Source of the DNA: Pseudomonas phage pPa_SNUABM_DT01
DNA: 64,000 bases
Strand: one strand, 5' to 3'
Sequence record: MW735835.1
The position numbers and the translations under genes were made by a program. Under the pieces are notes generated by a model, which made no database searches, had not been told where the DNA came from, and worked only from the letters and a program-made list of their open reading frames with translations. Positions 3,643 through 57,291 of this stretch are shown in pieces. How positions within the stretch are numbered: the first letter of the stretch is position 1; every line of letters starts with the position of its first letter.

Positions 3643-3674
3643 CATACGGGAGGGGCACTAGCCCCTCCCGTATG
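3643..3674. terminator. bidirectional hairpin between convergent genes
   Basis: Perfect 13-bp stem CATACGGGAGGGG / CCCCTCCCGTATG with loop cactag, sited between stop 3636 (+) and stop 3680 (-). Confidence 0.55.
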
Positions 3675-3679
3675 CTGCG

Positions 3680-5032
3680 TTACTCCAGTTCAGGCTCGCC
3701 AGTACCGCCACCCAGGGACTCGTCGTTATACGAGTACTTGGAAGCAACGATCAACTGGAAACGATCCAGGGTGTAGGAGACGTACAGCACGCCGTCTCGG
3801 ACCAAACGAGTGAACTTCACCGGTACGGCCGAGTCAGGGGTCATCTCTTCAGCTACAGTCAGCATTTCTGCCAGTGCGAGCACGAAGCGACGGGTCTCCG
3901 GATTCATCCGCATGAAATCGAGCGAGGTCGAGTCCACGTTGATGTAATCGTAGTACCGCTGAACGAACGAGGTGATACCATCACGGTTGTGCGGACCACC
4001 TGCTACGGTGACGGTGATGGCCTTGTGGCTGGCACCGAACACTTCAGCGTTGCTGTCGAGGTATTCCTCGGTGTAACCCTCACCCTTGACCAGGCGCTTG
4101 AGCTGCGCCTTACCGGCGTTCATGTTGGTCACGGAGCTGTACAGGCCTGCTTCCAGTTCCCGGTTGGGAATGGAGTAGTTGCCCCACAGTGGAACGAACA
4201 CGAACTCGGTGGAGGTGAAGATCTCCGGGAAGATCTCAGCCCACTCTTCCTTGGTGTGAGTCGAGTTGTCCAGGATGTAATCCCGGATGGCCTCTTTGAT
4301 CGCATCGACGTTGTTACCGGCGATGCCGTAGATCATCGGAGTCCAGTAGGTTGCGATGCGGCGGGTCTTATCCGTCGGGTCGGTCGGGTCGAACCACTCG
4401 TACATCGGACCGCTGATGTAGGTCTCAGGATAGACTTCCTGAATTTCCTGCACCCGGGCCATCTTCAGCTCATGGGTGAAATCGGCCAGGGCCGTGATCA
4501 CCGCAGTCCGCCCCAGGAAGAACACGTCCAGCTCTTGTACCGGCGGTACCACTTCGATGTGGTACTCGTCGTACTGCTGTTCGAAGGTTTCCGAGGCGAA
4601 CCACAGCTTGTACTGGAGGGTGTCATTGGCGATCGCATGGATCTCGATGACACCCGGCAGCCAGAGGTTCTGACCACCTTGCACCATTTGCCCGACACTG
4701 TGGATCGAGTACTTGGTGCCCCATTGTTGGATGAACGCAGTGCGGAAAGATTCAGCACTGGCAGTGAACTGGCCTGCCAAGGCCCGCTCATACGCCCACT
4801 TGCTCACCAGCAGCAGTTCGCCAGCCAGCACAGGGTTGGTCTGCTCGGCAACACCTTCGCGTTTGCTCGAGAATACGACCAGGGTATGGCCCGGCGCAGA
4901 GGCCGAGTTCAACTTCTCTTTGTTGCGACCATATGTCCATGCCCGATCGGAGAGTTCCCCAATCGGGGAGACTACATCGACCGTGTTGTCGATCAACGCG
5001 GCGATCTGGCAAAAAGCCTTCAGTTTATACAT
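3680..5032 (-). CDS. hypothetical protein, about 450 aa
   Basis: The track start at 5056 is GTG with no SD. The in-frame ATG at 5030-5032 (MYKLKAF...) is preceded by GGAGAG 4 nt upstream. No metallophosphatase (Mre11-type) motifs seen. Confidence 0.55.
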   Translation of the reverse strand: MYKLKAFCQIAALIDNTVDVVSPIGELSDRAWTYGRNKEKLNSASAPGHTLVVFSSKREGVAEQTNPVLAGELLLVSKWAYERALAGQFTASAESFRTAFIQQWGTKYSIHSVGQMVQGGQNLWLPGVIEIHAIANDTLQYKLWFASETFEQQYDEYHIEVVPPVQELDVFFLGRTAVITALADFTHELKMARVQEIQEVYPETYISGPMYEWFDPTDPTDKTRRIATYWTPMIYGIAGNNVDAIKEAIRDYILDNSTHTKEEWAEIFPEIFTSTEFVFVPLWGNYSIPNRELEAGLYSSVTNMNAGKAQLKRLVKGEGYTEEYLDSNAEVFGASHKAITVTVAGGPHNRDGITSFVQRYYDYINVDSTSLDFMRMNPETRRFVLALAEMLTVAEEMTPDSAVPVKFTRLVRDGVLYVSYTLDRFQLIVASKYSYNDESLGGGTGEPELE

Positions 5033-5115
5033 TTCACTCTCCGTTCGGATTGCCACTTACTTTATGACAATCGTTAAAGAAAACTCGGAACGTCCATACC
5101 ATTTTAGGGATTAAG

Positions 5116-5571
5116 ATGCAACTTCTGGCATTGTTTAAGGTCATCAAGGCGGCCCTCCTCTTCGTGAGAGAGATTTGGCTCCGCGATCGTACCTTCAGAC
5201 AGTTTGTCCGTGAGAATCTCTCCCTGATCGTGACTTCGTTTGGTTTTGTCATCATGACGATGTTCTTCCTCCATGTGGTAGGCATCGTGAAAGATCAGGA
5301 AGCGCAGCTCGTCGAAAACGAGCACTCCATGGCAGCGCTGAAGAAACAGATCGAGAGCGAAATCCCGTTCCTCAAAGAAAAGTTGGAATGGTACCGCGAT
5401 AGATATTACGAACTGAAAGCCCCCAAGCAACCTGCTAAGGGCAACTCACCAACGGCGCATAAGGAACCCACGCCACCTCCAACCCCGCGACCCAAGCCGG
5501 TAGAGAAGCCGACCATCAATCGCCCGCCATCCAACGACATCCAAGAGCGTTGGAAACGGTTAAGTCAATAG
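5116..5571 (+). CDS. membrane protein with coiled-coil and Pro-rich C-terminal tail (i-spanin-like?)
   Basis: N-terminal hydrophobic segments LLALFKVIKAALLFV and LIVTSFGFVIMTMFFLHVVGIV; central heptad region EAQLVENEHSMAALKKQIESEIPFLKEKLEWYRDRYYEL; tail PTPPPTPRPKPVEKP. SD AGGGA. Confidence 0.5.
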   Translation: MQLLALFKVIKAALLFVREIWLRDRTFRQFVRENLSLIVTSFGFVIMTMFFLHVVGIVKDQEAQLVENEHSMAALKKQIESEIPFLKEKLEWYRDRYYELKAPKQPAKGNSPTAHKEPTPPPTPRPKPVEKPTINRPPSNDIQERWKRLSQ

Positions 5572-5580
5572 GTCCCAACC

Positions 5581-5943
5581 ATGATCGCCAGATTCTTCGA
5601 TGGAAGCAAGGTGTTTTACCTGTTTTGGATTGTGGTATCGCTGGGTTCTTGCACCTACATCCAGACCAACGACAATCGTGTCTTCACCCTGAGCTTGCAG
5701 CCGGATCAGACAGAGTCTGGCTGTGGCGAGTTCAAGCGCAGCATTCACCTGGACCATAAACGGCCCATCTTCCCCAAGGTCGATATAGCGTCCCTGTCCC
5801 CTGACGAAATCAACGACCTATTGATGTCACACACCGAGAAGCTCATCCGCTACCTGGATAATGAGGAGCGATTCCTCCTGGAAGATATCATCCGGCACAA
5901 CCAGAAATGTGCCCCGGACGAGCCCGTAGTTTTTCAGAAATAA
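5581..5943 (+). CDS. putative lipoprotein, 120 aa (o-spanin-like or surface lipoprotein)
   Basis: N-terminus MIARFFDGSKVFYLFWIVVSLGSC has a basic n-region, a hydrophobic core and a lipobox-like L-G-S-C. It starts 10 nt after the upstream membrane protein gene. Three further Cys in the mature part. Confidence 0.45.
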   Translation: MIARFFDGSKVFYLFWIVVSLGSCTYIQTNDNRVFTLSLQPDQTESGCGEFKRSIHLDHKRPIFPKVDIASLSPDEINDLLMSHTEKLIRYLDNEERFLLEDIIRHNQKCAPDEPVVFQK

Positions 5944-6000
5944 TCCGGTGTATCTCATGAGCATTTGCCAAGTGCTAAACAATCAAACAAGGGCGCAGTA

Positions 6001-7503
6001 ATGACCGAGGTCAACAAGGACAATCCGACTGGAGTCGCGTACCACGGGGTATTGTACGCGGACGGTGGATTTTACAGCAGCGAACGCGCTGGGGGGTGGG
6101 GTTTACACGGTTACGTGTACTCAGCGGAGAGTTTGCCGGATAAGGCTAAAGGAAGCGGGGTGCCGGGTTCGACACCAACAGCCAAGGGTTACAGTGATAC
6201 CAAGGATGAAACCAAAGCCGTCAACGTCCTCAACTATATCGACAGTTTCGGTGGGGTGCCTAAGGCATCGAGCAACAACCACACCGAACTGCTAGCCGCG
6301 AAGGAGGCACTCACATACGTCCTTGAGAAGGGCTTGCATCAAACGACTATCTACTCGGATTCCGAGTATGTGGTCAAAGGTGTCAATCAGTATCTCGATC
6401 GCTGGAAGCAAACCGGCTGGCGAAACCGCAATGGCGACGAAGTGTCCAACAAGTCGGACTGGCTCGCTGTGGATTCGTTGCTGACGCAACTGCGCGACAA
6501 CCAGAACCAGGTGACTCTGGCCTGGATCAAAGGCCATAACGGCCACACAGGTAATGAGAAAGCGGATTCGTGGGCAGGTAAGGGTAACTGCATCGGCCTG
6601 AACGGATACGATCTCAGCTTCAAGCTCGAACAACCTCCTGAGGGGTACTGGAAGAGCGTGAGCAACTACAACCGAATGCTGGATCAGCCCAAGTGGTACT
6701 TTAGCTCTGATGCGAAGGAGTGCCGACTCTCTAAGGACGGTCGCCACGTTTACTGGACTGGGCAGCACGGGGACGACGAAGACGTCGCCAAACCTCAATC
6801 TGACTCGAGCAACGCGGTACTGTACCTCAAGGAACAGCTCCCGGTGTTGGAGAAGGTGCGAGAGCACTTTGTTGAGAAAGACCATCACCAAGTAGGACAC
6901 CTATTCGTTGGCGCCTTGCGTAACCTCCTGAATGCAAACGTGGCAGAAGACATCCATCGCTTCGGCCTCAAAGTGTTCAAGGGGAATAAAGCCAACTGGA
7001 GCCTTCAGACCGAGAAGAAAGTACCGGTCGTTCATCATGTCACCCCGACGGGGCTGTCCTTCTACAACGTGGACAACCTCACCAACATGACGGTCATCCT
7101 TGACCAGTTCATGGAAGGGGACAAGTCGGTACTTGTGACCGATTTGACTGACCTACTATATGAAGCCGTGGAAAAGAAAGCTGTGACCACGCGGAAACTA
7201 CGTAAGGAGATCGCCAATACGGTGAAGCACCTGGACGTGTCCGTGGGGTACAACACAGCCTTTGCCCGCGAGCTGAGGGCGATGGAAGACGTCCCGAGAA
7301 AGGTAGCGAAAGTTCGCCTGATCGTGGGGTCTGACATCATTGGTCGAAATGCCCTTGCGGCACTCGCTGAAACCGTAAAGCGAGTGGTGGTCCTTACCTG
7401 GCGTGAATCGGACACGGTCATTCGTTACGCAACGGTGATCGAGACGGAGCACGACATCGGTATTTGGGCTAACCCGTTCGGGAATTTCAAACTGGTGAAC
7501 TAA
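6001..7503 (+). CDS. RNase HI-domain protein with about 300-aa C-terminal extension
   Basis: The track start at 5965 is TTG; ATG 6001 is the probable start. N-terminal 200 aa align to E. coli RNase HI: VLYADGGF, TELLAAKEALTYV (ELMAAIVALEAL), TIYSDSEYVVKGV (STDSQYVRQGI), WIKGHNGHTGNEKADSWA (WVKGHAGHPENERCDELA). Confidence 0.7.
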   Translation: MTEVNKDNPTGVAYHGVLYADGGFYSSERAGGWGLHGYVYSAESLPDKAKGSGVPGSTPTAKGYSDTKDETKAVNVLNYIDSFGGVPKASSNNHTELLAAKEALTYVLEKGLHQTTIYSDSEYVVKGVNQYLDRWKQTGWRNRNGDEVSNKSDWLAVDSLLTQLRDNQNQVTLAWIKGHNGHTGNEKADSWAGKGNCIGLNGYDLSFKLEQPPEGYWKSVSNYNRMLDQPKWYFSSDAKECRLSKDGRHVYWTGQHGDDEDVAKPQSDSSNAVLYLKEQLPVLEKVREHFVEKDHHQVGHLFVGALRNLLNANVAEDIHRFGLKVFKGNKANWSLQTEKKVPVVHHVTPTGLSFYNVDNLTNMTVILDQFMEGDKSVLVTDLTDLLYEAVEKKAVTTRKLRKEIANTVKHLDVSVGYNTAFARELRAMEDVPRKVAKVRLIVGSDIIGRNALAALAETVKRVVVLTWRESDTVIRYATVIETEHDIGIWANPFGNFKLVN

Positions 7504-7513
7504 GGGTTCGGCT

Positions 7514-7894
7514 ATGTACCGATCAGTTGCGATGAACCAATCTCACGGATTTTGGACATCGGCCAAACGGACACTGTTCGTGGTCAGTCTGTATTTCCGT
7601 CTGATTCGGAACTACGATCCTGACGAGTCCCTGCTCGCTGAGTTCAACAGGCTCTTCTACTTGGTCAATGACCCAAGGTCCTTGTCCTTCCCGGCCATGA
7701 CGGCTCGGGTGTTGTGGAAAGGGAACATGGTCGATCAGGTGGTGGAGTGCTGTGAGCAAGGAGATTTCAAGCAGGCTGTTGAACTGGTCTACGGCACCGT
7801 GCCCAAGTGGCTTCGGTACCTGGACAGGGAAACGATGCTTCGTGACGTCGAGCGTGTATTACGGCAATCGCAGCACCGTGAACAAATCGCATGA
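7514..7894 (+). CDS. hypothetical protein, 126 aa
   Basis: ATG with AAGGG upstream; followed by the terminator hairpin. Confidence 0.5.
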   Translation: MYRSVAMNQSHGFWTSAKRTLFVVSLYFRLIRNYDPDESLLAEFNRLFYLVNDPRSLSFPAMTARVLWKGNMVDQVVECCEQGDFKQAVELVYGTVPKWLRYLDRETMLRDVERVLRQSQHREQIA

Positions 7895-7903
7895 TGCGGC
7901 ATA

Positions 7904-7938
7904 GATGGGAGGGACTCGTGCCCTCCCATCGACTTTTA
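7904..7938 (+). terminator. intrinsic terminator
   Basis: Stem GATGGGAGGG / CCCTCCCATC (10 bp, loop actcgtg) followed by gacTTTTat; lies between convergent genes. Confidence 0.6.
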
Positions 7939-7948
7939 TGCGCGTTGC

Positions 7949-8803
7949 TTATTTTCGCATCTCTTTCATGCTGTCTTTCATGGCTTCAGAGAACTGACGC
8001 ACACGGAACAGCAGGGTGCCGTAGGATTCCATTTCCTTGGCCATCAGCAGGGTCAGGTCGACCAGCTGTTGGATGCCGATGTCCACGGCTTCCTGGTTGG
8101 ACAGGCTCTTGTCGGCGATGGCAGCTTGTACAGCGGCCATTACGCCGCCAGCCAAGGTCATGGCACGATCAACGGCGTCCACTGCCTTCTTGGCCGGATG
8201 GGCCTTATCGAGGGCGATGGTGTCGTTGAGGTTGTTGTAGGTGGTGCGGATGTCAGTTTGACGTTCTACCACCGAACCCAACATGCGCGTGATGTGGTTG
8301 CTCTTGCCGTCGAAGTAGGTCTGGCCGATGTTCACCATGCTGGTGGTCAGGCCCAGGCCCATCGGGCCGTTGTGACCGATGCCGGAGGCGGAAGTGAGCA
8401 GCGTGGGGTCGTAGGTAATGCGGCCCAGGGTCTCACAGAAGCTACGCAGCATGTATTCCAGTTTGGTAGCGTCGCTCATGGCTTGCTTCAGAGCAGCCGA
8501 GTACGGTACCCATTGACCCACGAAGCCCTCAGGAACGATGACGGGCTTGTTGGACGCATCCACGAAACCTACTTTGGCCACGAAGCCTTCGAGGTCGCGC
8601 GGGGTCAGGCCGGTGATGGCCAGAGCAGTGAACTTCATCTGGTTGAAGAAGCCACTGGCGGCGCGGAAGAACTGTGCCCCACGGTCGCGCATCTTCATGG
8701 GGTTGACGTTCGGCATGCCGTGTTCCATGGAGATGGTGCGCGCCATGCGCTCCAGCGATTCCAGGGAGACGCTGTCGAAATCGTCGACGATGTTCTGGTT
8801 CAT
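7949..8803 (-). CDS. hypothetical protein, 284 aa
   Basis: ATG at 8801-8803 with GGAG upstream on the minus strand; protein-like composition. Confidence 0.6.
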   Translation of the reverse strand: MNQNIVDDFDSVSLESLERMARTISMEHGMPNVNPMKMRDRGAQFFRAASGFFNQMKFTALAITGLTPRDLEGFVAKVGFVDASNKPVIVPEGFVGQWVPYSAALKQAMSDATKLEYMLRSFCETLGRITYDPTLLTSASGIGHNGPMGLGLTTSMVNIGQTYFDGKSNHITRMLGSVVERQTDIRTTYNNLNDTIALDKAHPAKKAVDAVDRAMTLAGGVMAAVQAAIADKSLSNQEAVDIGIQQLVDLTLLMAKEMESYGTLLFRVRQFSEAMKDSMKEMRK

Positions 8804-15204: not shown

Positions 15205-15250
15205 CATGGGGCCTTCGGGCCCCATGACTCACTCCTTTCTTTTTTCTTTG
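15205..15250 (+). terminator. intrinsic terminator
   Basis: Stem CATGGGGCC / GGCCCCATG (loop ttcg) followed by a T-rich tract tttcttttttcttt. Confidence 0.55.
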
Positions 15251-15263: not shown

Positions 15264-16268
15264 ATGTCATTGATCTCCAACCCGTTGTTCAAGACGGACA
15301 ACACCGAGAAACTCGCGGTAGGGGACGCCTACGACATCTCCAGCACCCGGCCGATCAACAAGATCTTTGATGCGGCTAAGGACGGCGCTTCTAAGCTGTT
15401 CGACCGTGCTGGTGGTATCAACGGCATCGCTTCGGGTCTCCAGAGCATTATCTCCGCAAAGATGTCCGGTGCCACCGGTAAGCAGATGCTGGAAGCTGGC
15501 CTCGGCATGTTCAACACCAGTACCATTGGGATCTTGCGCGATGCCTCTAACGGTATCCTGGATCGTGCTGGTACATTCCTTGACTTAGACCCCTCGATGA
15601 TAGACCGGGTCAAGTCGGCAGGCAGTGACGTCGCCAACCGCATGCAGTACGGTGGATTCGACGACTTTACCAGCTATGGTTCATTGACCACGCTGATTGG
15701 TGACATGGCCGGCTATCCTCAGTTGGCCGAATACGTCAACATGGGCATGGAGGCGGCGGTATGGGGCAGTGCGATTTCCCAGACCATCGACTACGGTCAG
15801 TACCATTACATGGACGATGTGAAGCAGTATATCGATCCTGAGGTTTATCGCCAGGCACTGATCTACAGCATCCCGTCTGTGGCCACTTCTGGTGAACTCA
15901 CCGCAGTCACGACATTGTTGGGTCAGCTCACCGCAGCTGAAGTCTACGCCAACAAGCCTGACTTCGTTAAGGTGTTCCTCCAGCGGTTCAAGATGCCGCA
16001 GACCCCGCCTGCGGACTTCGTTGCTTACAGCAGGGAAGTTGTGAACACCTGTAGTCAGATCCAGACGGGCTGGTACACCTACAAACGTGGTGCGGAAACT
16101 ATCTACGATCTGACCTGCCTAACCACCGCGTCGGAAGATGCACAGCGTCTGTTGCAACTGCACCCAGAACTTGGTGTCATCGTGCAGATCGCTCCGGAGT
16201 TCCCAGAGCAGACAGTGGATGAGAACATCCATCAACAGTTCTCGTTGATGATCATGACGTTGACATAA
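15264..16268 (+). CDS. hypothetical protein, 334 aa
   Basis: SD AGAGG upstream of the ATG. Confidence 0.6.
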   Translation: MSLISNPLFKTDNTEKLAVGDAYDISSTRPINKIFDAAKDGASKLFDRAGGINGIASGLQSIISAKMSGATGKQMLEAGLGMFNTSTIGILRDASNGILDRAGTFLDLDPSMIDRVKSAGSDVANRMQYGGFDDFTSYGSLTTLIGDMAGYPQLAEYVNMGMEAAVWGSAISQTIDYGQYHYMDDVKQYIDPEVYRQALIYSIPSVATSGELTAVTTLLGQLTAAEVYANKPDFVKVFLQRFKMPQTPPADFVAYSREVVNTCSQIQTGWYTYKRGAETIYDLTCLTTASEDAQRLLQLHPELGVIVQIAPEFPEQTVDENIHQQFSLMIMTLT

Positions 16269-16272
16269 CGGA

Positions 16273-16306
16273 CATAGGGCCCAGGGCAGCTGCCCTGGGC
16301 CCTATG
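16273..16306. terminator. bidirectional hairpin
   Basis: Perfect 17-bp palindromic stem CATAGGGCCCAGGGCAG / CTGCCCTGGGCCCTATG between convergent genes. Confidence 0.55.
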
Positions 16307-16311
16307 TCGCA

Positions 16312-18384
16312 TCATCGACGATCTGTTGCCAGAGCGAACGCTTTTGCCACGTCGCCAATGATACCCGACATGCTCCACATGACCGCACGTTCTGGGGAAT
16401 GCGCATCATCGAACGCTGCTTGCTGACGAGCCAGACGGATCGCCCATTTACGCAGCCCGTTGATCTCTGCTTCCAGCGGGATGCCGGCCAGGATCGACAG
16501 GAAGTCGGTATAACTGTTGTCATCGTCGTAGGTCGAGCCCAAGAACATCGAGGCTACCGCTACGCCGTTCTCGCCGCCCACAGATGGGATACCACCACCG
16601 AGCCAGGAGATACCTGCACCCACACCGTAACCAGCCGCTTGTACCACACGGTCCGACAGTTCGAACGCAGGGTTGAGCGGCATGTTAATGGCGTTGGTCA
16701 GGTCCAACAGACCCAGTTGGCAATCCACGCCGAGGAAGCCCCCGGTGTTGTTCCAACCGATGTCACCGACACCACGGGTGAACGTCAACGAATCGACGAT
16801 CGCCAGACGGGAGTGAGCACGACCCTGAGCGAAGTACTCGATCAGGAACGGAGCAGTGTGCGACTGCTTACCAGTAGCCAGAGGCACAGACATGGCAAAC
16901 AGGCAGCACATCGGCAGGATCAGGTTCTGCAAGCGCGACACGGGGTCGCCGTACGGGCTTCGCAGCGGGATACTCAGCGACAGCTTGTTGAAGTCACAGC
17001 TGGAGCTGTCCCACACTTTCGGGATGTCGACGTAAGCCGAGCCGGCGAGCTGTGCAAGGCCTTGAATGCCGATACCCTGGCCGATACCAGTGGCGAAGTC
17101 TTTCAACGCACCAAGGGCACCAGAGACGATCCCAGACCCATCGATGTTGCCGTCAAACATGGAGAAGCGAGTCTCACGGGCCGAGGCCGAGATGGCGTTG
17201 ATCTGTTGTCCGACCGAAGCTTCCTTGGTACCGTTGTTGAACGACTCCGACTGAGTGCCGGTGTAGTCCACACGCAGGGACAAGAATTCAGAGCCCATAC
17301 GGGCTTCGGCCATCAATGCATCCTTGGCACGATTGATGACATCGTCACCCATCCGACCAGTCTTCTCAGCGTTCTCGGTCCGGGAAGCCTCTTGCGAGAT
17401 CTTACCCAGCATCTCACTGTCTTTCCAGATCTTGACGTAACCTTCGTAGCTGTTGTCGACCTTACCCACCAGGGCGTAGACGTCACCCATGTCCTCACCG
17501 TAGAGACGTTTCTTGAACGCCTCACGCATCGCTGCTTTACTGGTGATGCCGTTGAGTTCATCGTCGAGAAGGTTACGACGATGGTTGACCAGACGCTGAC
17601 CACGCTGAGCCACAGCGAACACGTCAATGCCACCGTTCTTCCGGTAGATCGATGGGATCAGGTTGTGGTAGGTCTCCACATCCGTGGCCGAGATCCCGTC
17701 TTCGTTCCCGTAGAGTGCCTTGGCACCCTCGTAGATCGGACGCGGGATGATGCCCATGTTGGCTGCGATGCCGTTGACCATCGACGACACCCCACTCCAG
17801 TAGGGCAGCATGGACGGCTTCAGGTAGTAGTACTTCGACGCCGGACGGCGGAAGAAGAAGTTGACAGCCTTACTTACCAGGATCGCAGGCATCAGCGGGA
17901 TAGTCGCTACCGACCCCAATGCCCAACCCAGCGAGTAGAAGAATCCAGGCGCTCGACCCGAACGGGCCATGGAGGCAGCCGGGATCGAGTAGTAGTTCGC
18001 ATAGAACGACGTCAAGCTGTTGAACTGCGGGAAGCCCATACGGAAGTGAACTACCTGCATGTTGTCGTCGAACTTCTCGGAGTACACACGCCCCATGCCG
18101 TTGGTCGACGTGGAGTTGGTGCTGTTGGTCCGCGTGACCTTCGGAACGAGGATACTTTTACCCCGTGCCTCAGATCGACTAAGGATGTTGTGTTTCAAGT
18201 CAGCATAACGGGTGAACTGGGGCAATGGGTTGATAACGTAGTTACCGCCCAAGGTCGTGTCAGTGGCTTTCTGCATCGACGTCGAGTAGATCCGGTTGAT
18301 CACCGCGTCAGTGCCACCGATCACCTGATCAGCGGGCAGCAAGAAAGCCGATTTCACCCAGCTGTCATCCAGAATGTTATCCAT
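16312..18384 (-). CDS. hypothetical protein, 690 aa, Gly-rich hydrophobic segments (probable virion protein)
   Basis: ATG at 18382-18384 with GAGG 4 nt upstream; lies just downstream on the minus strand of the giant virion gene. Confidence 0.6.
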   Translation of the reverse strand: MDNILDDSWVKSAFLLPADQVIGGTDAVINRIYSTSMQKATDTTLGGNYVINPLPQFTRYADLKHNILSRSEARGKSILVPKVTRTNSTNSTSTNGMGRVYSEKFDDNMQVVHFRMGFPQFNSLTSFYANYYSIPAASMARSGRAPGFFYSLGWALGSVATIPLMPAILVSKAVNFFFRRPASKYYYLKPSMLPYWSGVSSMVNGIAANMGIIPRPIYEGAKALYGNEDGISATDVETYHNLIPSIYRKNGGIDVFAVAQRGQRLVNHRRNLLDDELNGITSKAAMREAFKKRLYGEDMGDVYALVGKVDNSYEGYVKIWKDSEMLGKISQEASRTENAEKTGRMGDDVINRAKDALMAEARMGSEFLSLRVDYTGTQSESFNNGTKEASVGQQINAISASARETRFSMFDGNIDGSGIVSGALGALKDFATGIGQGIGIQGLAQLAGSAYVDIPKVWDSSSCDFNKLSLSIPLRSPYGDPVSRLQNLILPMCCLFAMSVPLATGKQSHTAPFLIEYFAQGRAHSRLAIVDSLTFTRGVGDIGWNNTGGFLGVDCQLGLLDLTNAINMPLNPAFELSDRVVQAAGYGVGAGISWLGGGIPSVGGENGVAVASMFLGSTYDDDNSYTDFLSILAGIPLEAEINGLRKWAIRLARQQAAFDDAHSPERAVMWSMSGIIGDVAKAFALATDRR

Positions 18385-18394: not shown

Positions 18395-18437
18395 TGAAAA
18401 GAAAAGAGGTGTGAGGGGTGTTACCCCCTCACACCTC
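18395..18437 (-). terminator. intrinsic terminator (minus strand) after the giant gene
   Basis: Stem GAGGTGTGAGGGG / CCCCTCACACCTC (loop tgtta). On the minus strand the hairpin is followed by a U-run (forward aaaagaaaag) and then directly by the SD and start of gene 16312..18384. Confidence 0.55.
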
Positions 18438-36677: not shown

Positions 36678-36684
36678 TCGTCAA

Positions 36685-36718
36685 CATACAGGGAGGAGCC
36701 TAGGCTCCTCCCTGTATG
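36685..36718 (+). terminator. terminator hairpin fused to TATGCCG motif
   Basis: Stem CATACAGGGAGGAGC / GCTCCTCCCTGTATG (loop ctag). The 3' arm ends in TATG, continuing as TATGCCGTGTG. Confidence 0.55.
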
Positions 36719-36730
36719 CCGTGTGTTCGA

Positions 36731-37440: not shown

Positions 37441-37467
37441 AGGGCCTCCGGGCCCCTTCTTTTTTGC
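37441..37467 (+). terminator. intrinsic terminator
   Basis: GC stem AGGGCC / GGCCCC (loop tccg) followed by TTCTTTTTTG. Confidence 0.5.
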
Positions 37468-37612: not shown

Positions 37613-38092
37613 ATGAGTGAAGTTCTGAACAAAGTCAGCCAGGCCATGAAAGACGTCGCCGCTCAATTCGAGAGCGCTGTTGGTTTCGACGACGATGGCG
37701 CAGCTGTACTGCCCGAGACCTGGGTCAAGGACAACCTGGCACTGGCCTCCGGTAGCGAAGAGCTGAGCCTCGAGACCGTCAACCTGGTGCAGAACACCGA
37801 AGCCACCTTCGCCGGCGGCATCGCCCTGGGTCTGGGTAACTCCGGCCTCAAGCGCATGCAGGAAAAAGCCGACCTGGAACGCGTCTCCGCCTCCGTCGAC
37901 TTCGGCAGCAACACCATCCGCGCCTCCGTCGATCGCCAGATCATGGTCCGTGCACCGGGCTCCACCGAAGAGAAGCCGAAGCACGGCAACGTCTCCGTCA
38001 AGCTCGATTCCGGCGCTGCCGCGAAGAAAGGCGACCTGAAGCGCGTCGTTACCCACGTGAACGAAGCCTTCACCGCCGCCTTCAGCAAATAA
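37613..38092 (+). CDS. hypothetical protein, 159 aa
   Basis: Strong SD TAGGAG; followed by a terminator. Confidence 0.65.
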   Translation: MSEVLNKVSQAMKDVAAQFESAVGFDDDGAAVLPETWVKDNLALASGSEELSLETVNLVQNTEATFAGGIALGLGNSGLKRMQEKADLERVSASVDFGSNTIRASVDRQIMVRAPGSTEEKPKHGNVSVKLDSGAAAKKGDLKRVVTHVNEAFTAAFSK

Positions 38093-38110: not shown

Positions 38111-38160
38111 CATCCAGCCGCTCTCGTAGCGGCTGGATGTTTATGCCCTTAATTTTTTCT
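38111..38160 (+). terminator. intrinsic terminator followed by TTTATGCCC
   Basis: Stem CATCCAGCCGC / GCGGCTGGATG (loop tctcgta), then tttatgcccttaattttttc. Confidence 0.55.
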
Positions 38161-39301: not shown

Positions 39302-39670
39302 ATGGAACTTTTCGATTATTACGTCGAACCTGTGGTCAATGTAGAGACAGCCTTTAACCATGTGGCCTTAGAGGCCGCTATAAGGCTCATAGAGAGCGAT
39401 TCAGACGTTCACCCGTACAATCCCTCTCAACGCATTGATCTACGTGCTATGACGCACGTGGAGAGCATTAATGCCCTGCGTGAGCTGATCCATATGTCTG
39501 GCTTCGAACTGGACATCAACAAGATCCTCTGCGAGAACAACCGTTTAGAGACCCCGTACGAGCGCACCATCAAGAAGGCGTTCATGACGAATCACTACAT
39601 GGTCGAGTCCTCAAAAGGCTGGCTGGTCTTCGATACTCATGTGGACACTCACATTGAGGTCTACAAGTGA
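39302..39670 (+). CDS. hypothetical protein, 122 aa
   Basis: ATG with AAGG upstream. Confidence 0.55.
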   Translation: MELFDYYVEPVVNVETAFNHVALEAAIRLIESDSDVHPYNPSQRIDLRAMTHVESINALRELIHMSGFELDINKILCENNRLETPYERTIKKAFMTNHYMVESSKGWLVFDTHVDTHIEVYK

Positions 39671-39675: not shown

Positions 39676-39697
39676 GGGGAGAGCGCTTGCTCTCCCC
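39676..39697 (+). terminator. hairpin followed by TATGCCG motif
   Basis: Stem GGGGAGAGC / GCTCTCCCC (loop gctt), then gcTATGCCGTGTC. Confidence 0.5.
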
Positions 39698-39708
39698 GCT
39701 ATGCCGTG

Positions 39709-39747
39709 TCGATTGAAAAGTTTTACAGCAATACATGATAGCAGTGA
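39709..39747 (+). promoter_or_regulatory. copy 3 of conserved AT-rich upstream element
   Basis: TCGATTGAAAAGTTTTACAGCAATACATGATAGCAGTGA; 35 nt upstream of ATG 39782. Confidence 0.5.
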
Positions 39748-41419: not shown

Positions 41420-41433
41420 TCCTGGACAGACGG

Positions 41434-41478
41434 CATACAGGGCGCCCATTGGGCGCCCTGTATCCGTTTCTTTTTTTT
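41434..41478 (+). terminator. intrinsic terminator
   Basis: Stem ATACAGGGCGCCC / GGGCGCCCTGTAT, then cgTTTCTTTTTTTTGTTT. Confidence 0.65.
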
Positions 41479-41492: not shown

Positions 41493-42359
41493 TTACAGCT
41501 TGATGAAGGTGCGGTTGAACTCCGCAACTTGCTCGGTGTAGCCCACGTTGTGCTTGGCCACGTCCGCTTCCACACCGGTCATGAAGGCCGGCTTCAGGTT
41601 CGGAGAGGTACCGGTCTTCGGCATCGCGTCCAGCAGTTGCTGAGCGAAGCGATCGACCGCGAGACCTACCTGCTGCATCCCGGTGAACGGGATGGACAGG
41701 ACAAGCTCCTCGCCATCGGCGGTCTTGTCACGACGGCCGGTGAAATCACCGGCAGTGGTCGGGTACATGTTGGTGATGAGCCACGCCGAGTTGACCTTGG
41801 TGAAGGACGGGTCCGGCTCGAAGGCGATGATGCTCATCGAGTAGATGTCCGGCAGCAGGTCGGTCGGGCGGTTGACGCGGGTAGCGATACCCGGCACCTT
41901 CGAATCCGGGTCCATGATCAGTTCGGTGATCCAGGATTCGAAGAACCGCTGAACCGGACGACCGTACTTCTCACGGATGGTCATCGAGGGGTCGGAACGC
42001 TGACGCGTCACGTTGCTCGGGGTCTGTTGCATTTCGCCAGCACCCGACACCGGCGCTTCGACGCTGTTCACAGTCAGGGTACGGTTGAAGCCGTCCCAGG
42101 TCTGTGCGTGCATCTCCACAATGCCCTTGAGGGCCTTGTAGTAGCTGTCCGGGTTGTCCAGGTATTGGAAACCACGCGGCGCTTGCAGAACCTTGATGAT
42201 CAGGTTGCGGCGTACGTAGTCGGTGTTGGCATGGAAGTAACGGAGGTCCGACTGGTAGGCGTTTTGACCGCCCAGTGCCAGGTTGACCATCGGCGAGTTG
42301 TTGTACTCGCCGTAACCCAGGCCGTTACCCAGGAGAGTGTCGCGATGACGGACGCCCAT
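41493..42359 (-). CDS. hypothetical protein, 288 aa
   Basis: Start shares nucleotide 42359 with the stop of the upstream minus-strand gene. Confidence 0.6.
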   Translation of the reverse strand: MGVRHRDTLLGNGLGYGEYNNSPMVNLALGGQNAYQSDLRYFHANTDYVRRNLIIKVLQAPRGFQYLDNPDSYYKALKGIVEMHAQTWDGFNRTLTVNSVEAPVSGAGEMQQTPSNVTRQRSDPSMTIREKYGRPVQRFFESWITELIMDPDSKVPGIATRVNRPTDLLPDIYSMSIIAFEPDPSFTKVNSAWLITNMYPTTAGDFTGRRDKTADGEELVLSIPFTGMQQVGLAVDRFAQQLLDAMPKTGTSPNLKPAFMTGVEADVAKHNVGYTEQVAEFNRTFIKL

Positions 42360-49901: not shown

Positions 49902-52121
49902 ATGGAAACAATTCTCTTCAAGCGGGACTGGGACCGATACCCGACCGCGATTTGGGACCTCGAGACCAAGAACGAATCGTTCCTCGAATTCTCAGCCTTG
50001 CTGAAACACATGGGCGTCGAGAACCATCTCTTCATGCTTGCGCTCATGCAGCCAGACCTGCAAGGTGTCGACCCGTTCGACCCGTTCTTGACCGAAGAGC
50101 AAAAGCTCAAGATCAAGATCGAATGTACGTTCAACCCCTGGTACTTCATCCGTGAAGTGATGCGCGTACCACCAGCTGCGGGTGACACCCCGATGAAGCT
50201 GGAAGCCAACCGGGGCAACATCTCCTTGTGGTGGAGCTTCCTCAACCACATCGACTACTTCCTCGTGCAGATCCGTCAGACCGGTAAGTCGCTGAACTCT
50301 GACGGTATCTCCGTGTGGTACCAGGTCTTCGGTGCCCGTAACTCCCGTTCCAACTTGTTCACCAAGGGTGACTTGTTCAAGGAACACATTGCCCGTCTGA
50401 AGAAACTGCGGGGCTTGCTGCCCAAGTATCTGGTTAACATTGTCAAGAAGGACACGGACAACCAGAAAGAGTTCACCAACATGTCCCAGGGCAACCGCAT
50501 GGTGGTGTACATCCCGCAGAAAGACGAAGAAGCCGCCCGTAACCTGGGCCGGGGTCTGACTACCCCGCACAGCCACACTGACGAAATTGCATTCTTGAAG
50601 AACGTGCACATCTCGCTCGGTGTTATGCTGGCAGGTGGTGGTGCTGCTCGTGAAGAAGCGGCACGCAACGGCCTCCCGTACGGCAACATCTTCACCACTA
50701 CTGCTGGCGAACTGGACACCAAGGAAGGGGCTTACGCCTACGACCTGATGACCGGTGGGGCAGAGTGGAACGACAGCTTCTACGACTGTGCCAACAGCAC
50801 GGAACTGTACGAAGTCGTCCGTAAGCAATGCCGCAACAAAGACGCGATCCTCATCAACGGTACCTTCAACCACAAACAGCTCGGCAAGACCGATGCGTGG
50901 CTGCGGACCAAGATCGCTGAATCCCGTCAGACTGGTGACGAAGTCCGCCGTGACTACCTCAACGAATGGACCTCGGGTAACGCCCGAAACCCGCTGTCGA
51001 AAGATACCCTGCGGAAGATCCATGCGTCGGTAACCAAACCCACCTACCTCGAAATCGACAAGATGGATCACTACTCCATCCGTTGGTACATCCCGCAGTG
51101 GGAAGTCGAGGCTGGGATACCGAACCGTGAACTCACCATGGGCATGGATACATCCAACGCCGTGGGTCGAGACAACATCACTGGTGTGATCATTGACAAC
51201 AGTACCCTCGAGGTCGTGGGTGCGTGGACGGTCAACGACTCCAACCTCACTGTGTTTGCGATGTGGCTCGCCAAGATCCTCGTCCGCTTCCAGAAACTCA
51301 CGATGGTGCCCGAATCCAAGTCTACCTGGATCGGTATCCTCGACACCCTGTTGCTTACGCTGCCGACCCACAAGATCGATCCGTGCAAACGGATCTACTC
51401 GACCTTGGTGGATGCCAAGGACCAGTCGCCAGATGACCGTAGGCGTTACCACGAATACATCGGAGACCGGGACAACTACCGGTCGTACCGCAAGCACTTC
51501 GGTTTCCCCACCAACTCCCAGCTGCGTGAGATCATCTATGGTCCCGTGTTGCAGGAAGCGGCGAAGAAGACCGGTGCAGTGGTCCGCGATGCCAAACTTC
51601 AGGCAGAACTGTCGCGCCTCGTAGAGCGGAACGGTCGAATCGACCACGATGCCTCGGGTCACGACGACCACGTCATCAGTTGGTTGCTGTGCCACTGGTT
51701 CCTCACCTATGGCCGCAACCTCGAGCACTACGGCATTACCCTCAGTGAAGTGAAGCGTCGTGTATACGAAGCCGAACACAAGCTGTCCTGGGAAGAACAA
51801 CGCCGTTACGACCAGCAGCAAGACATCCGTGACGAGATCACTCAAATCGGTGAGCGCATCAGCCAAGAACGCAACACGTTCGAGCGGATCAAGCTTCAGC
51901 ACCGCTTGGAACTCTTGCTTCTGCAAGTCAGTGACGAGTTCGAAATGGAAGGGGCACAATCCCTAGACCAGATCAAGGAGAACAGTCGTGAGAAGTTGAA
52001 TATCGTCAACCGGAACTTCGGTCCGGGACGAGAACTCGAATTCGAACGACCGCTCAACTTGAACATGACGCAGCGTCGAGCCTATTCGATGCCGAGTCGC
52101 CAGAACGTGGTTGTTTGTTGA
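49902..52121 (+). CDS. terminase large subunit (T4 gp17-like)
   Basis: Deviant Walker A VQIRQTGKS (T4 gp17 SRQLGKT); Walker B-like TDEIAF; C-terminal nuclease-like acidic cluster IDHDASGHDDHVISW; SD AGGGAAA. Confidence 0.7.
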   Translation: METILFKRDWDRYPTAIWDLETKNESFLEFSALLKHMGVENHLFMLALMQPDLQGVDPFDPFLTEEQKLKIKIECTFNPWYFIREVMRVPPAAGDTPMKLEANRGNISLWWSFLNHIDYFLVQIRQTGKSLNSDGISVWYQVFGARNSRSNLFTKGDLFKEHIARLKKLRGLLPKYLVNIVKKDTDNQKEFTNMSQGNRMVVYIPQKDEEAARNLGRGLTTPHSHTDEIAFLKNVHISLGVMLAGGGAAREEAARNGLPYGNIFTTTAGELDTKEGAYAYDLMTGGAEWNDSFYDCANSTELYEVVRKQCRNKDAILINGTFNHKQLGKTDAWLRTKIAESRQTGDEVRRDYLNEWTSGNARNPLSKDTLRKIHASVTKPTYLEIDKMDHYSIRWYIPQWEVEAGIPNRELTMGMDTSNAVGRDNITGVIIDNSTLEVVGAWTVNDSNLTVFAMWLAKILVRFQKLTMVPESKSTWIGILDTLLLTLPTHKIDPCKRIYSTLVDAKDQSPDDRRRYHEYIGDRDNYRSYRKHFGFPTNSQLREIIYGPVLQEAAKKTGAVVRDAKLQAELSRLVERNGRIDHDASGHDDHVISWLLCHWFLTYGRNLEHYGITLSEVKRRVYEAEHKLSWEEQRRYDQQQDIRDEITQIGERISQERNTFERIKLQHRLELLLLQVSDEFEMEGAQSLDQIKENSREKLNIVNRNFGPGRELEFERPLNLNMTQRRAYSMPSRQNVVVC

Positions 52122-52126
52122 TGCGG

Positions 52127-52160
52127 CATACAGGGCAGGCCACTTGGCCTGCCCTGTATG
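52127..52160. terminator. bidirectional hairpin
   Basis: Stem CATACAGGGCAGGCC / GGCCTGCCCTGTATG between convergent genes. Confidence 0.5.
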
Positions 52161-52163
52161 TTG

Positions 52164-53039
52164 TCAGTGCGTTTCCAGCCACACCAGCATGCGCAGGTGG
52201 TTGGCGATGGAGCGTGCTCGGGCGAACAGTGCACAGAGGATCTCGCTGTTGAGCGGGTTCTGCATTTCACGGTCAATGAACTGGATGATCCGATGGGGTT
52301 CTTCATCGGTTCTGGCCAACTCACGGAACGATTGCAGTTTGGAGATCTCGACATCCATGGGTGGAAACACTGCGTCGATCTGATCAGCTACTGCATCGAA
52401 GCGTGCGGCCCAATGGACCATCGACTTGGCTTTCTCCGCATCCAAGCGGATCGGGTAGGCCGATTGACCGTAGTCAGGGCGCTGAGGGACCTGGAAGGTC
52501 ACCAGAACGTCACCGCGGAACGGAGAGACCTTGACCAAGGGTGCCTTCTCGCGCATGCCCAGTAGGCACGGCCGGACTTCCGAGAGGATCTCAGCAGCCG
52601 TCTTAGGACGACGAGCGAGTTCGACATCCTTGTTGATGACGTCGAGGCGGTAGGTGGTCATCTGCGCCCAGCCCAGGAAGGCAAAGATCCGAGTCTGCAC
52701 CATGCCAATGATGACCTGGTACATCTTGACCTCGGCCTCCAGTGCTCGGAACACCGCATCACCCAAAGGCTCACCGCCCAGCATCAACCAGGCGGCTACT
52801 GGGGTCTCGAATGACTTGGCCTCCTTACGGTACTCAGCCCGATCCAACCACTCATCCGTGTAGTGGTACTCCGACCCAGGGCGATTCCATGGACCGCTGG
52901 TGATCTTCTGAGTGCCGTAGATCGACGGCAATTCAAAACTACCAAAGATACGACCGAACTTCGACTCGGATTCCATGGAAACTCCAGCAGTCTCCTCACC
53001 TGCATAATTGGCACGCAGATACGCTTCGACGGTGGTCAT
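52164..53039 (-). CDS. hypothetical protein, 291 aa
   Basis: SD AGGAAA on the minus strand. Confidence 0.6.
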   Translation of the reverse strand: MTTVEAYLRANYAGEETAGVSMESESKFGRIFGSFELPSIYGTQKITSGPWNRPGSEYHYTDEWLDRAEYRKEAKSFETPVAAWLMLGGEPLGDAVFRALEAEVKMYQVIIGMVQTRIFAFLGWAQMTTYRLDVINKDVELARRPKTAAEILSEVRPCLLGMREKAPLVKVSPFRGDVLVTFQVPQRPDYGQSAYPIRLDAEKAKSMVHWAARFDAVADQIDAVFPPMDVEISKLQSFRELARTDEEPHRIIQFIDREMQNPLNSEILCALFARARSIANHLRMLVWLETH

Positions 53040-55580: not shown

Positions 55581-55614
55581 AGAGCCTAGGGATCTCCCTA
55601 GGCTCTTTTCTTTT
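55581..55614 (+). terminator. intrinsic terminator
   Basis: Stem AGAGCCTAGGGA / TCCCTAGGCTCT (loop tc), then TTTCTTTT. Confidence 0.6.
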
Positions 55615-55902
55615 GAATGAAGGGGGTCTGTATAGTATGCAAGTCTTGCTCACTTACTCGGGAAGGAAAGAGAAGGGGGTAAGACTAATGACGAACGAAG
55701 TGAGGAATTAGTCTGGGGGATGAGATAGGAAGGGTATAGTCTGCCGTGTTGGTGGCTATCTGGAGGGAGAGGTTACTCGACCGGAGGAGAGACAACACAC
55801 GAGCCCTTCTAGTGAGGCGAAGCCTCACCTTATATAGATTTTGGGATGACGACCCAAGTGATATGGCAATTTTCGTAGAGAAAAACTTTTAGACCTCCGC
55901 CC

Positions 55903-55932
55903 CAGTCAGCGCAAGCTGACGTTTTTATTTTT
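55903..55932 (+). terminator. intrinsic terminator inside the non-coding locus
   Basis: Stem CAGTCAGC / GCTGACG (loop gcaa), then TTTTTATTTTT. Confidence 0.5.
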
Positions 55933-55973
55933 GATGTCTGGATACTGTATAGCTTCGGCAATGGAGAAAACAC

Positions 55974-56459
55974 ATGAACCTGTTTGTATCGTTGGAGGAA
56001 GTGCTTTCTCCGATTGGTGAACCCAAAGCTCCGACTGTGGGCCTGCTGGTCCAAGACTGGGACGAGAACGTCACAGGTGTGGCGGAGCAAGTGGTCAACC
56101 TGGGCTATGGGGTCCAGCTGATCCCGGCGGGGGCGAAGTACTCCCCTGAAGGCATCGGTCACACCACCATGACCAAGAGCGCCAAAGAGAAGACACCCCA
56201 GTCGATCTCTGAACGCCGTGAGGACCATGGGGATGAAGGGGACAACGATGTCCCTGATCCTCGCAACTTCCCGCATCAGCCTCAAGTCCTGTTCTACTAC
56301 AAGGGCAAACCGGAAGATGCCGCAGAAGGAATCCCTGTCCTGGTCGCTGAGGATGGGAAAGTCAAAGTCAGCGTCGAAGGGCGCGTCAAGGAGTTGGCCG
56401 AGTACCTCGGCATGCTCGAGGAGAATGACAATGATCCAGGCGATCATGAATATCGTTGA
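55974..56459 (+). CDS. hypothetical acidic protein, 161 aa
   Basis: SD GGAGAAAA upstream of the ATG. Confidence 0.55.
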   Translation: MNLFVSLEEVLSPIGEPKAPTVGLLVQDWDENVTGVAEQVVNLGYGVQLIPAGAKYSPEGIGHTTMTKSAKEKTPQSISERREDHGDEGDNDVPDPRNFPHQPQVLFYYKGKPEDAAEGIPVLVAEDGKVKVSVEGRVKELAEYLGMLEENDNDPGDHEYR

Positions 56460-56760
56460 ATGGCTGTTGGTGTTGTTCGTTCTGTGGATGGCGGTGTACC
56501 CGTACATTGCGTATTTCCACAGTGAAAGGACCTTCAAGGGCATCCTAGTGGAGAATGGGGCGGGATACCTCATTGTCCTGGCCAGTAAGCTGCACAAGCA
56601 GTTCGTGGAGATCGTAGCGACGTTGGCCATTGTGGCCTTCTTGGCTGCGTGCTTCCCGAAGTTTGCTTACGCCGTGGCGATCTGGTTCTTCCAGGTGGCG
56701 GTCGTGTGCCACACTGCCCTCAAGGCAGGGCATGAACCGTACGTCACTGAGATCGGCTAG
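56437..56760 (+). CDS. membrane protein, 107 aa (multi-TM)
   Basis: MIQAIMNIVEWLLVLFVLWMAVYPYIAY...IVATLAIVAFLAACF...AIWFFQVAVVC; overlaps the upstream gene by 23 nt. Confidence 0.5.
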   Translation, partial: QAIMNIVEWLLVLFVLWMAVYPYIAYFHSERTFKGILVENGAGYLIVLASKLHKQFVEIVATLAIVAFLAACFPKFAYAVAIWFFQVAVVCHTALKAGHEPYVTEIG

Positions 56761-56768
56761 GAGCTGCC

Positions 56769-57260
56769 ATGGATAAGATCGTTCCCTTGAATCGTGCCAT
56801 CACCGCGATGTGCCGAGCCACTGCTGCGGTCCACCCGACCAATGTCACGTTGGCCTGGACCATCTACAAAGTGCCGGCGTTCTTCCTGGCTCAGCGTCAA
56901 GCAGATCAGGTGGCGTATGCATACCCGCTCACCTTGGCCCGTTTGATGTACTGGTTCGGCGATGCTCCGGTCAATGCGGCGCTGCATGCCCAGTGGCCTG
57001 AGACCATCAACCGTGACAAGCGCATGATCCTCGAGGCTTTGTTCAAACGTGTGATGATGCACGTGGATGAGATCCTCGACAGCGTCTCCCACCCAGCCGA
57101 TTGGCCCTCGTTGCCACCGGCCAGCACGGAATCGTTGGAGATCGCCCGTATCCTCCTTGCCTTCGAAGACTTCTTCACCAAGGCGATGGAGAGTGGGGAG
57201 ATCCCCGATACCGAGGAATGGTGGAAAGCCTTGACCGTCAAGGTCGAACCACAAGTCTAA
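56769..57260 (+). CDS. hypothetical protein, 163 aa
   Basis: SD TAGGAG upstream of the ATG. Confidence 0.6.
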   Translation: MDKIVPLNRAITAMCRATAAVHPTNVTLAWTIYKVPAFFLAQRQADQVAYAYPLTLARLMYWFGDAPVNAALHAQWPETINRDKRMILEALFKRVMMHVDEILDSVSHPADWPSLPPASTESLEIARILLAFEDFFTKAMESGEIPDTEEWWKALTVKVEPQV

Positions 57261-57291
57261 CATAGCGGAGGGCCTAGGCCCTCCGCTTATG
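57261..57291 (+). terminator. hairpin fused to TATGCCG motif
   Basis: Stem CATAGCGGAGGGCC / GGCCCTCCGCT(T)ATG, continuing as TATGCCGCC. Confidence 0.5.

Follow-up and report, generated by a model that had tools for sequence, protein, structure and literature searches.

Hairpins followed by a directional TATG box: probable phiKZ-type transcription terminators in the GC-rich Pseudomonas phage pPa_SNUABM_DT01

The closest described counterparts of the element treated here are transcription terminators of the phages phiKZ and 201phi2-1. RNA 3′ ends of phiKZ have been mapped by ONT-cappable-seq (Putzeys et al. 2024, PMC10914365), and the motif 5′-BCCYCCCCHWWDGGGRRGGBYTTATKYYGT-3′ was found at 61 predicted intrinsic terminators of this phage, which also contains six overlapping bidirectional terminator regions between convergent genes (PMC10914365). 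In 201phi2-1 the same motif, motif A, is present at 59 sites, its co-occurrence with motif B elongates the stem, 15 sites are bidirectional, and eight terminators proved functional in a P. chlororaphis reporter assay (PMC11512511). In both phages the combination of hairpin and box coincides with mapped RNA 3′ ends (PMC10914365, PMC11512511). Here, we analysed 64,000 nucleotides of Pseudomonas phage pPa_SNUABM_DT01 (sequence record MW735835.1), hereafter referred to as the window, which contains a family of GC-rich hairpins with CATA and TATG at or next to their stem ends.

The conserved unit of this family is a stable hairpin that is followed, 0-2 nucleotides later, by the directional sequence TATG-C-Y-G-Y-n-T of about ten nucleotides. 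All seven copies of TATGCCG in the window (four on the plus strand and three on the minus strand) are located 0-2 nucleotides 3′ of a hairpin on their own strand, and the family is therefore defined by a directional post-hairpin box and not by a symmetric stem end. The word itself is not numerically enriched, as 4.35 copies are expected. Since the DNA of phiKZ and of Xanthomonas phage RTH11 displays the same design, the element belongs to a known kind; judged by this sequence comparison, it is the already described conserved terminator of phiKZ type, here in a new GC-rich lineage, and not a new kind of element. We conclude with good confidence that the hairpin and its directional box form a terminator of this type.

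A directional box behind stable hairpins

In its short form, the fixed box reads TATGCCGT and stands after a GC-rich hairpin, with the mirror arrangement CATA...TATG where transcription must stop from both directions. CATA is how the box of the opposite strand appears in reverse complement; it therefore pairs with TATG and lengthens the stem. The CATA mirror is found mainly at convergent gene pairs and at about one third of the tandem sites. At 7904, 38111, 39676 and 61428 the box is located outside the stem, and no CATA is paired within it; at 39676 CATA is absent upstream and TATG is consequently unpaired, and at 7904 a CATA one nucleotide before the stem is the reverse complement of the element's own minus-strand box.

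A preliminary description of this DNA had listed seven hairpins, all of which are present at the positions and with the sequences given. Their common CATA...TATG stem ends were found in six of the seven; the hairpin at 15205 has the ends CATG...CATG followed by TTTCTTTTTT, and belongs to a class with a T-run. The proposal that CATA...TATG is the conserved unit did not stand in its symmetric form and is replaced by the directional box of about ten nucleotides, which can lie wholly outside the stem (38111, 39676 and 61428). Several members had been overlooked, namely the one-sided hairpins 7904-7930, 38111-38139, 39676-39697 and 61428-61456, as well as two with a T-run on the plus side, 55581-55606 (TATG on the minus side) and 58638-58663 (TTATTCCGT on the minus side). 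The suspected terminator behaviour agrees with the position of the hairpins 0-16 nucleotides after stop codons, almost none being found between divergent genes.

When the 64-kb window was surveyed for perfect inverted repeats, 19 hairpins had stems of 9 bp or more, and 18 of these are intergenic. The perfect stems comprise 18 bp at 16271-16308, 16 bp at 36685-36718 and 52127-52160, 14 bp at 3643-3674, 13 bp at 41435-41463, 9 bp at 15205-15226, and 11 bp at 57264-57287, where CATA/TATG is added across a 1-nucleotide bulge. The members are thus GC-rich stem-loops of high stability with perfect stems of 9-18 bp: the folding free energies (dG) of the cited hairpins range from -20 to -39.5 kcal/mol, and z-scores relative to dinucleotide-shuffled sequences lie between -3.6 and -8.5; in 200 shuffles no fold of equal stability arose. 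TATG and CATA together occur 122 times in 128 kb, counting both strands, and 17 of these occurrences fall within -4 to +6 nucleotides of the ends of the 18 strong intergenic hairpins, where about 0.38 are expected (Poisson P ~1e-22). This association lies far beyond chance expectation.

In total, the window holds 12 hairpin-plus-box elements, all of them intergenic, and wherever the upstream gene was confidently called their hairpins start 3-19 nucleotides past its stop codon. Canonical scans for a hairpin with a T-run miss those without a T-run, at 3643, 16271, 36685, 38111, 39676, 52127, 57264 and 61428. A canonical U-tract, taken as at least five T in the eight nucleotides directly after the hairpin, is lacking in most members and is present only on the plus sides of 7904, 41435, 55581 and 58638.

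A near-identity DNA search with 12 kb of the window against a phage collection gave no match, and relatives were instead gathered by protein search and from IMG/VR loci. Three IMG/VR scans yielded 40 loci of the same lineage, distributed over some 25 contigs with a GC content of 47-57%; their proteins are 52-84% identical to those of the window. Together with the window, these loci provided 158 different hairpins that are intergenic and have stems of 9 bp or more. Only two of the 158 are located between divergent genes, and the hairpins hence serve as markers of gene ends. On gene-end hairpin sides TATG was found in 116 of 219 cases, as compared with 18 of 97 on other sides (Fisher P = 8e-9, an optimistic value because the loci come from related phages and are not phylogenetically independent). 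Among the 51 box-bearing sites between convergent genes, the box is two-sided in 32 and one-sided in 19, and between tandem genes it is found on the coding-strand side only (22), on both sides (11) or on the other side only (6). The box is thus placed at gene 3′ ends on the transcribed strand, and is bidirectional between convergent genes.

The sequence logo of the 116 gene-end sites, which were collected by requiring TATG and are thus fixed to G at the K position by construction, displays a C-rich 3′ arm, T at position -2 and TATG, followed by C (73%), C (58%), G (76%), T (51%), any base, and T (64%). The phiKZ form (T)TAT-K-Y-Y-G-T occurs immediately 3′ of the stem in the window as TATGCCGTGT at three sites, as TATGCCGTCT and as TTATTCCGTC, the DNA of phiKZ having been compared directly.

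The orthologues of individual sites separate the box from the stem. At the site orthologous to 41435, at the end of the tail-sheath unit, 13 distinct sequences were obtained, with stems including CATACACCGGGAGCCA, TAGGAGGGAGCCC, TATACGGGGGCA and GCATAGAGGGTGGGT. All 13 are paired at each position from -10 to -1, where between one and four different pair types are seen, mostly two to four. None of them departs from TATGCCG, and they also retain the A-run that forms the T-run of the opposite strand. At the convergent site 52127 all four TATG bases are paired with CATA in seven of seven orthologues. Because neither the length nor the sequence of the stems is constant among the 13 sequences of the 41435 site, MAFFT and RNAalifold recovered only five pairs there, and a symmetry-anchored pair count was used instead. 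Between orthologues, substitutions in the stems are compensatory, and the box stays fixed. This shows that TATG-C-Y-G-T itself, and not T-richness, is under selection on the gene-end strand, while the stems drift. The earlier intuition of selection on the ends was therefore right, because the 13 orthologous stems differ and all keep TATGCCG; it applies to the ends and not to the interior or loop.

Position -1 of the box is either G or C and position +5 either C or T; both are uniform within a genome and differ between genomes: CCCTG-TATG-CCG in the window stands against CTCTC-TATG-CTGT in others, e.g. IMGVR_UViG_3300035491_000275. This uniformity suggests concerted change, possibly a co-evolution with the polymerase.

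Individual members and genomic setting

The individual elements are compiled in Table 1, together with the genes that place the window among phages. A class of hairpins followed by a T-run (consensus TTTCTTTT) coexists with the box class, at 15205-15245(+), 18406-18437(-), 37442-37465(+), 41435-41478(+), 55581-55620(+), 58638-58680(+) and 63391-63435(+); the hairpins at 55581, 58638 and 63391 have AGAG...CTCT stem ends in common. At the convergent sites 7892-7903, 52119-52130 and 16303-16314 the box extension contains the stop codon of the opposing gene. Moreover, the string TGATGCGGCATA is present at two non-orthologous convergent sites, where the other strand reads TATGCCGCATCA.

Table 1. 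Putative terminators and selected genes of the window (dG in kcal/mol; z against dinucleotide shuffles)
Feature	Position	Gene context or remark	Hairpin	Box or tract	dG	z
3643, two-sided	3639..3678	convergent 3289-3636(+) / 3680-5056(-)	3643-3674, CATACGGGAGGGGC acta GCCCCTCCCGTATG	TATGCTGC on +, TATGTTTG on -	-33.3	-7.7
7904	7897..7942	between 7514-7894(+) and 7949-8803(-)	7904-7930, GATGGGAGGG...CCCTCCCATC	-: TATGCCGCATCA directly after stem (7903 down to 7892); +: TTTTATGCG after 3-nt spacer, also found by canonical terminator scan	-25.3	-4.7
16271, two-sided	16269..16310	convergent 15264-16268(+) / 16312-18384(-)	18-bp perfect palindrome, GACATAGGGCCCAGGGCA gc TGCCCTGGGCCCTATGTC	TATGTCGCAT on +, TATGTCCGTT on -	-39.5	-8.5
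36685	36681..36724(+)	after 35418-36677(+); orthologues in relatives	36685-36718, CATACAGGGAGGAGCC ta GGCTCCTCCCTGTATG	complete TATGCCGTGT at 36715-36724; mirrored TATGTTGA on - despite tandem neighbours	-30.6	-7.0
38111, one-sided	38111..38149(+)	after 37613-38092(+)	CATCCAGCCGCT ctcgt AGCGGCTGGATG	tt, then TATGCCCT	-28.4	-5.3
39676, one-sided	39676..39709(+)	after 39302-39670(+)	GGGGAGAGC gctt GCTCTCCCC	gc, then TATGCCGTGT	-20.7	-3.6
41435	41428..41478	convergent 39782-41419(+) / 41493-42359(-)	41435-41463	box TATGCCGTCT on - (41437 down to 41428); T-run TTTCTTTTTTTT on + (41467-41478)	-32.5	-7.7
52127, two-sided	52121..52164	49902-52121(+) / 52164-53039(-); orthologues in relatives	CATACAGGGCAGGCCA ct TGGCCTGCCCTGTATG	TATGCCGCATCA on -, TATGTTGT on +	-32.1	-6.2
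55581	55574..55620	gene context uncertain	55581-55606, AGAGCCTAGGGA tc TCCCTAGGCTCT	TATGTCTG on -; T-run TTTCTTTT on +	-22.2	-4.5
57261	57257..57297(+)	directly after 56769-57260(+)	57261-57291, CATAGCGGAGGGCC ta GGCCCTCCGC T TATG	TATGCCGCCT at 57288-57297; mirrored TATGTTAG on -	-23.8	-5.0
58638	58628..58680	between 58286-58630(+) and 58748-59623(-)	58638-58663	T-run on +; box T variant TTATTCCGTC on -, fits phiKZ K = T		
61428, one-sided	61428..61467(+)	after 60374-61420(+)	GGACTGTGGAG ctaaccc CTCCACAGTCC	t, then TATGCCGTGT	-20.9	-5.0
15205, not of the TATG class	15205..15245(+)		CATGGGGCC ttcg GGCCCCATG	TTTCTTTTTTCTTT, T-run terminator class	-22.8	-5.4
Virion RNA polymerase beta subunit, 1463 aa	26521-30912	39% identity to phiKZ gp178				
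Second RNA polymerase beta fragment	24624-26543	homologue of virion RNA polymerase beta				
gp181-like tail protein, 2106 aa	in window					
Terminase large subunit	49902-52121(+)					
gp29-type tail sheath (phiKZ gp29 homologue) and DUF7193 protein	in window					
Ribonuclease-like protein	5965-7503					
Virion structural protein, phrog_3185	41493-42359(-)	last gene of tail-sheath unit				
Virion structural protein	3680-5056(-)					

The window has a GC content of 56.6% (64 kb). Gene calling relied on a self-trained codon model; in true genes the GC content at third codon positions is about 0.72-0.80. Judged by its proteins, which include homologues of multisubunit RNA polymerase (RNAP) beta, a gp29-like sheath and a DUF7193 protein, the window derives from a phiKZ-like jumbo phage (Chimalliviridae). 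Matches to sigma-70-like promoters were fewer than expected from dinucleotide shuffles in three scans (5 versus 8.7, 1 versus 6.6 and 3 versus 7.0). The low count would fit a phage independent of the host polymerase, like phiKZ, an independence that we infer from family membership. Searching the entire window against Rfam at gathering thresholds yielded zero matches.

Proposed working and competing explanations

In the working that we propose, the GC-rich upper stem, with its G-rich 5′ arm and C-rich 3′ arm, would be the acting terminator hairpin. The box of 8-10 nucleotides, (N0-2)TATGCCGT, would occupy the place of the U-tract and would be read during transcription by the phage polymerase, as a signal for pausing or release, such that the RNA ends within or just after the box. 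Between convergent genes, where the box is present on both strands and the DNA reads CATA-stem-loop-stem-TATG, the terminator would work both ways. The upstream CATA may then be the counterpart of the A-tract in bidirectional bacterial terminators, supplying the box of the other strand, and within the RNA it could pair with UAUG and extend the hairpin into the hybrid. UAUG is buried in the stems of two-sided members (-30 to -39 kcal/mol) and single-stranded in one-sided members on the same functional side; reading of the box therefore probably takes place on the DNA or in the course of transcription, and not on free RNA. A recognition site for RNA polymerase, one of the roles envisaged in the preliminary description, is a live candidate for the box.

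TATG is also known as a promoter word. The late promoters of phiKZ have the core 5′-TATG-3′, the G of which is the start site, and this core is needed for in vitro transcription (Yakunina 2015, PMC4666361); gp123 binds the TATG core on the non-template strand, and the structure of the pocket has been described (PMC12809450). In the lineage studied here, hairpin-free TATG is about ten times as frequent between divergent genes as in coding sequence, with a peak 30-39 nucleotides before start codons, and its flanks are A-rich upstream, followed by T-3 G-2 G-1, TATG and A A. Such sites are found in the window at 5063(+), 5098(-), 8842(-), 13423(-) and 24807(-), and at 45 positions in the divergent intergenic regions of relatives. 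TATG promoters thus probably exist in this lineage, and the listed sites are candidate late promoters of the phiKZ TATG type.

It is conceivable, although we regard it as tentative, that the terminator box is a copy of the promoter core of the polymerase itself, so that one word of four nucleotides read by the polymerase marks both starts and stops. The non-virion RNAP would catch the non-template TATG in its beta-lobe pocket (gp123 in phiKZ) and pause; the RNA would be released by the hairpin, with help from CAUA that invades the hybrid at UAUG, and the flanks (A-rich-TGG/AA as opposed to C-rich stem/CCGT) would decide between start and stop. If true, the TATG word would fully replace the U-tract in this GC-rich lineage. 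The four core bases common to the box and the late promoter provide a concrete and cheap hypothesis for termination by non-canonical polymerases; a literature search on termination or pausing by the non-virion RNAP of jumbo phages found nothing relevant.

Avoidance of the word inside genes was assessed by synonymous-codon shuffling. TATG is present 52 times where 108 are expected (0.48) and CATA 20 times where 43 are expected. The control words TATC (120 versus 172, 0.70) and GATA (65 versus 108, 0.60) are depleted as well, as is TATA, and the depletion therefore mostly reflects a general avoidance of TA-containing words; a specific avoidance of TATG and CATA inside genes is at best weakly supported.

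Several points weigh against termination by hairpin and box as the function of the element. We infer termination at the window elements from their position and from motif homology, and the mapped 3′ ends of phiKZ could in principle arise from processing or exonuclease trimming. Furthermore, since UAUG lies inside the stem in two-sided and outside in one-sided members, the release point would vary; it cannot match relative to both stem and box, unless only the GC-rich upper stem acts. The polarity of the arms is opposite to that in phiKZ and RTH11, and the hairpin sequence itself is hence not what is shared. About 20% of the gene-end sides carry neither box nor T-run, and another 21% have a T-run instead, so that the box is not obligatory. 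The optimistic Fisher P value given above likewise counts on this side.

The element could alternatively serve RNA processing or stability, the box being recognised or cut by an endoribonuclease of host or phage and the hairpin shielding the new 3′ end, with transcription reading through. We consider this unlikely, even though hairpins of such high stability, placed where genes end, fit 3′-end protection, published 3′-end maps alone do not separate termination from processing, and a ribonuclease-like protein is encoded in the window. The state of UAUG, paired in two-sided and free in one-sided members, leaves no single mode of recognition at the RNA level that fits both, which also renders the RNA-processing site suggested in the preliminary description less likely. 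In addition, the box mirrors the gene-end strand at convergent sites, as terminators do, and the terminators of 201phi2-1, most of which combine two of the motifs reported there, block downstream reporter expression in uninfected P. chlororaphis (PMC11512511).

Quite unlikely is a restart cassette, in which the hairpin terminates and the adjacent TATG is a late promoter of the non-virion RNAP for the next gene, with CATA as a promoter pointing the opposite way. TATG with its G start site is exactly the phiKZ late promoter core that is necessary in vitro (PMC4666361) and is bound on the non-template strand by gp123 (PMC12809450), promoters of this kind are probably present in the lineage, and between tandem genes the box is indeed followed by a gene. 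However, at convergent pairs (3643, 7904, 16271, 41435, 52127 and 58638 in the window; 51 census sites) the box faces into the opposing gene from its 3′ end, and only antisense RNA could be made there. The flanks also differ, as the hairpin TATG is C-rich upstream and followed by CCGTnT, in contrast to the promoter-like flanks described above, and the next start codon is most often 90-109 nucleotides away from hairpin TATG, as compared to 30-39 nucleotides from promoter-like TATG. The box TATG is therefore not a TATG upstream of a gene with the flanks of a phiKZ late promoter. Moreover, at 36715 and 57288 a separate AT-rich promoter-like motif is located between box and gene.

This AT-rich motif of about 45 nucleotides, ATTCGATTCnAATATTTTTCAnnnATACATnnTAnnnGTGA, follows two hairpin-plus-TATGCCG terminators and precedes small genes (36726-36775 and 57300-57350), and the same motif is also found behind orthologous terminators in relatives (L007, L008, L010, L014, L016, L017 and L041). 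It is a candidate early promoter of the virion RNAP.

A DNA-level element, be it the palindromic site of a dimeric protein or a mobile palindrome spread between genes in the manner of repetitive extragenic palindromic (REP) sequences or miniature inverted-repeat transposable elements (MITE), is very improbable: several perfect DNA palindromes do share the end CATACAGGG (5 occurrences versus 0.28 expected), and the uniformity of positions -1 and +5 within genomes, with differences between them, could reflect copying or co-evolution with a factor, but the CATA-to-TATG spacing of 27-37 nucleotides in the window with stems of 9-18 bp is unsuited to a rigid dimer, one-sided members lack a second half-site, orthologous positions are kept in relatives with different interiors, unlike the insertion polymorphism of a mobile repeat, and there is one copy per gene end with almost none in divergent intergenic regions. 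On account of the variable spacing, the one-sided members and the syntenic conservation, both forms of this explanation were rejected; the conserved whole palindrome and the insertion polymorphism of a REP element were not found, the interiors being different and the positions syntenic. No transposase match was obtained among the 20 largest proteins of the window against PHROGs, no search aimed at RAYT/TnpA_REP having been made.

The ATG of TATG as a start codon was likewise rejected, as neither a ribosome-binding site nor a conserved frame accompanies it, and the convergent sites are antisense.

Comparison with known terminators

With respect to phiKZ-type termination, standard terminator finders miss most terminators of GC-rich phiKZ-like phages, which have no U-tract, and a search for a hairpin with TATGCYGT delimits transcription units. 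A GC-rich lineage moreover allows the box to be separated from general T-richness, which is impossible in phiKZ (37% GC).

The likeness to phiKZ extends over the whole arrangement: gene 3′ ends carry a GC-rich hairpin with (T)TAT-G/T-Y-Y-G-T directly behind it, the element is bidirectional at convergent genes, and an upstream complement lengthens the stem; (T)TATGCCGT of the window falls within TTATKYYGT. In the first 50 kb of phiKZ DNA, the site gp31.1/gp32 reads CATAA-GCCCTCCC-attgc-GGGAGGGC-a-TTATG, and RTH11 (58.5% GC) has CATAac-GCCCCCGCC-ttcg-GGCGGGGGC-TTATGCTGCCGT. Inspection of the phiKZ annotation by eye revealed an upstream CATA at four of about ten tandem terminators. In contrast, phiKZ and RTH11 have the C-rich arm on the 5′ side and commonly a UUCG loop, whereas in the window the 5′ arm is the G-rich one, the box adjoins the C-rich arm, and the loops are not UUCG. 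The two bases after TATG are mostly C-C in the lineage of the window, with one window site (58638) showing the T variant, and the surroundings are not T-rich, so that the GC-rich box stands alone without a U-tract. Compared with the late promoter of phiKZ, the box has the identical four bases TATG; it differs by the C-rich stem upstream, CCGT downstream and its location at gene 3′ ends, including convergent pairs.

Bacterial intrinsic terminators likewise consist of a stable hairpin with a tract of about eight nucleotides directly downstream. Bidirectional terminators composed of A-tract, hairpin and U-tract between convergent genes in bacteria were reportedly described by Ju, Li and Liu in 2019; as in the window, the arrangement is mirrored at convergent genes, and the upstream complement extends the stem. 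The tract of the window, however, is the specific sequence UAUGCCGU and not U-rich. T7 RNA polymerase recognises ATCTGTT as its class II termination or pause signal. The resemblance to this signal lies in the possible mechanism, a phage polymerase that would halt at a short specific DNA sequence and not at a U-tract; the T7 enzyme is a single-subunit RNAP and its signal needs no hairpin, and no homology is implied.

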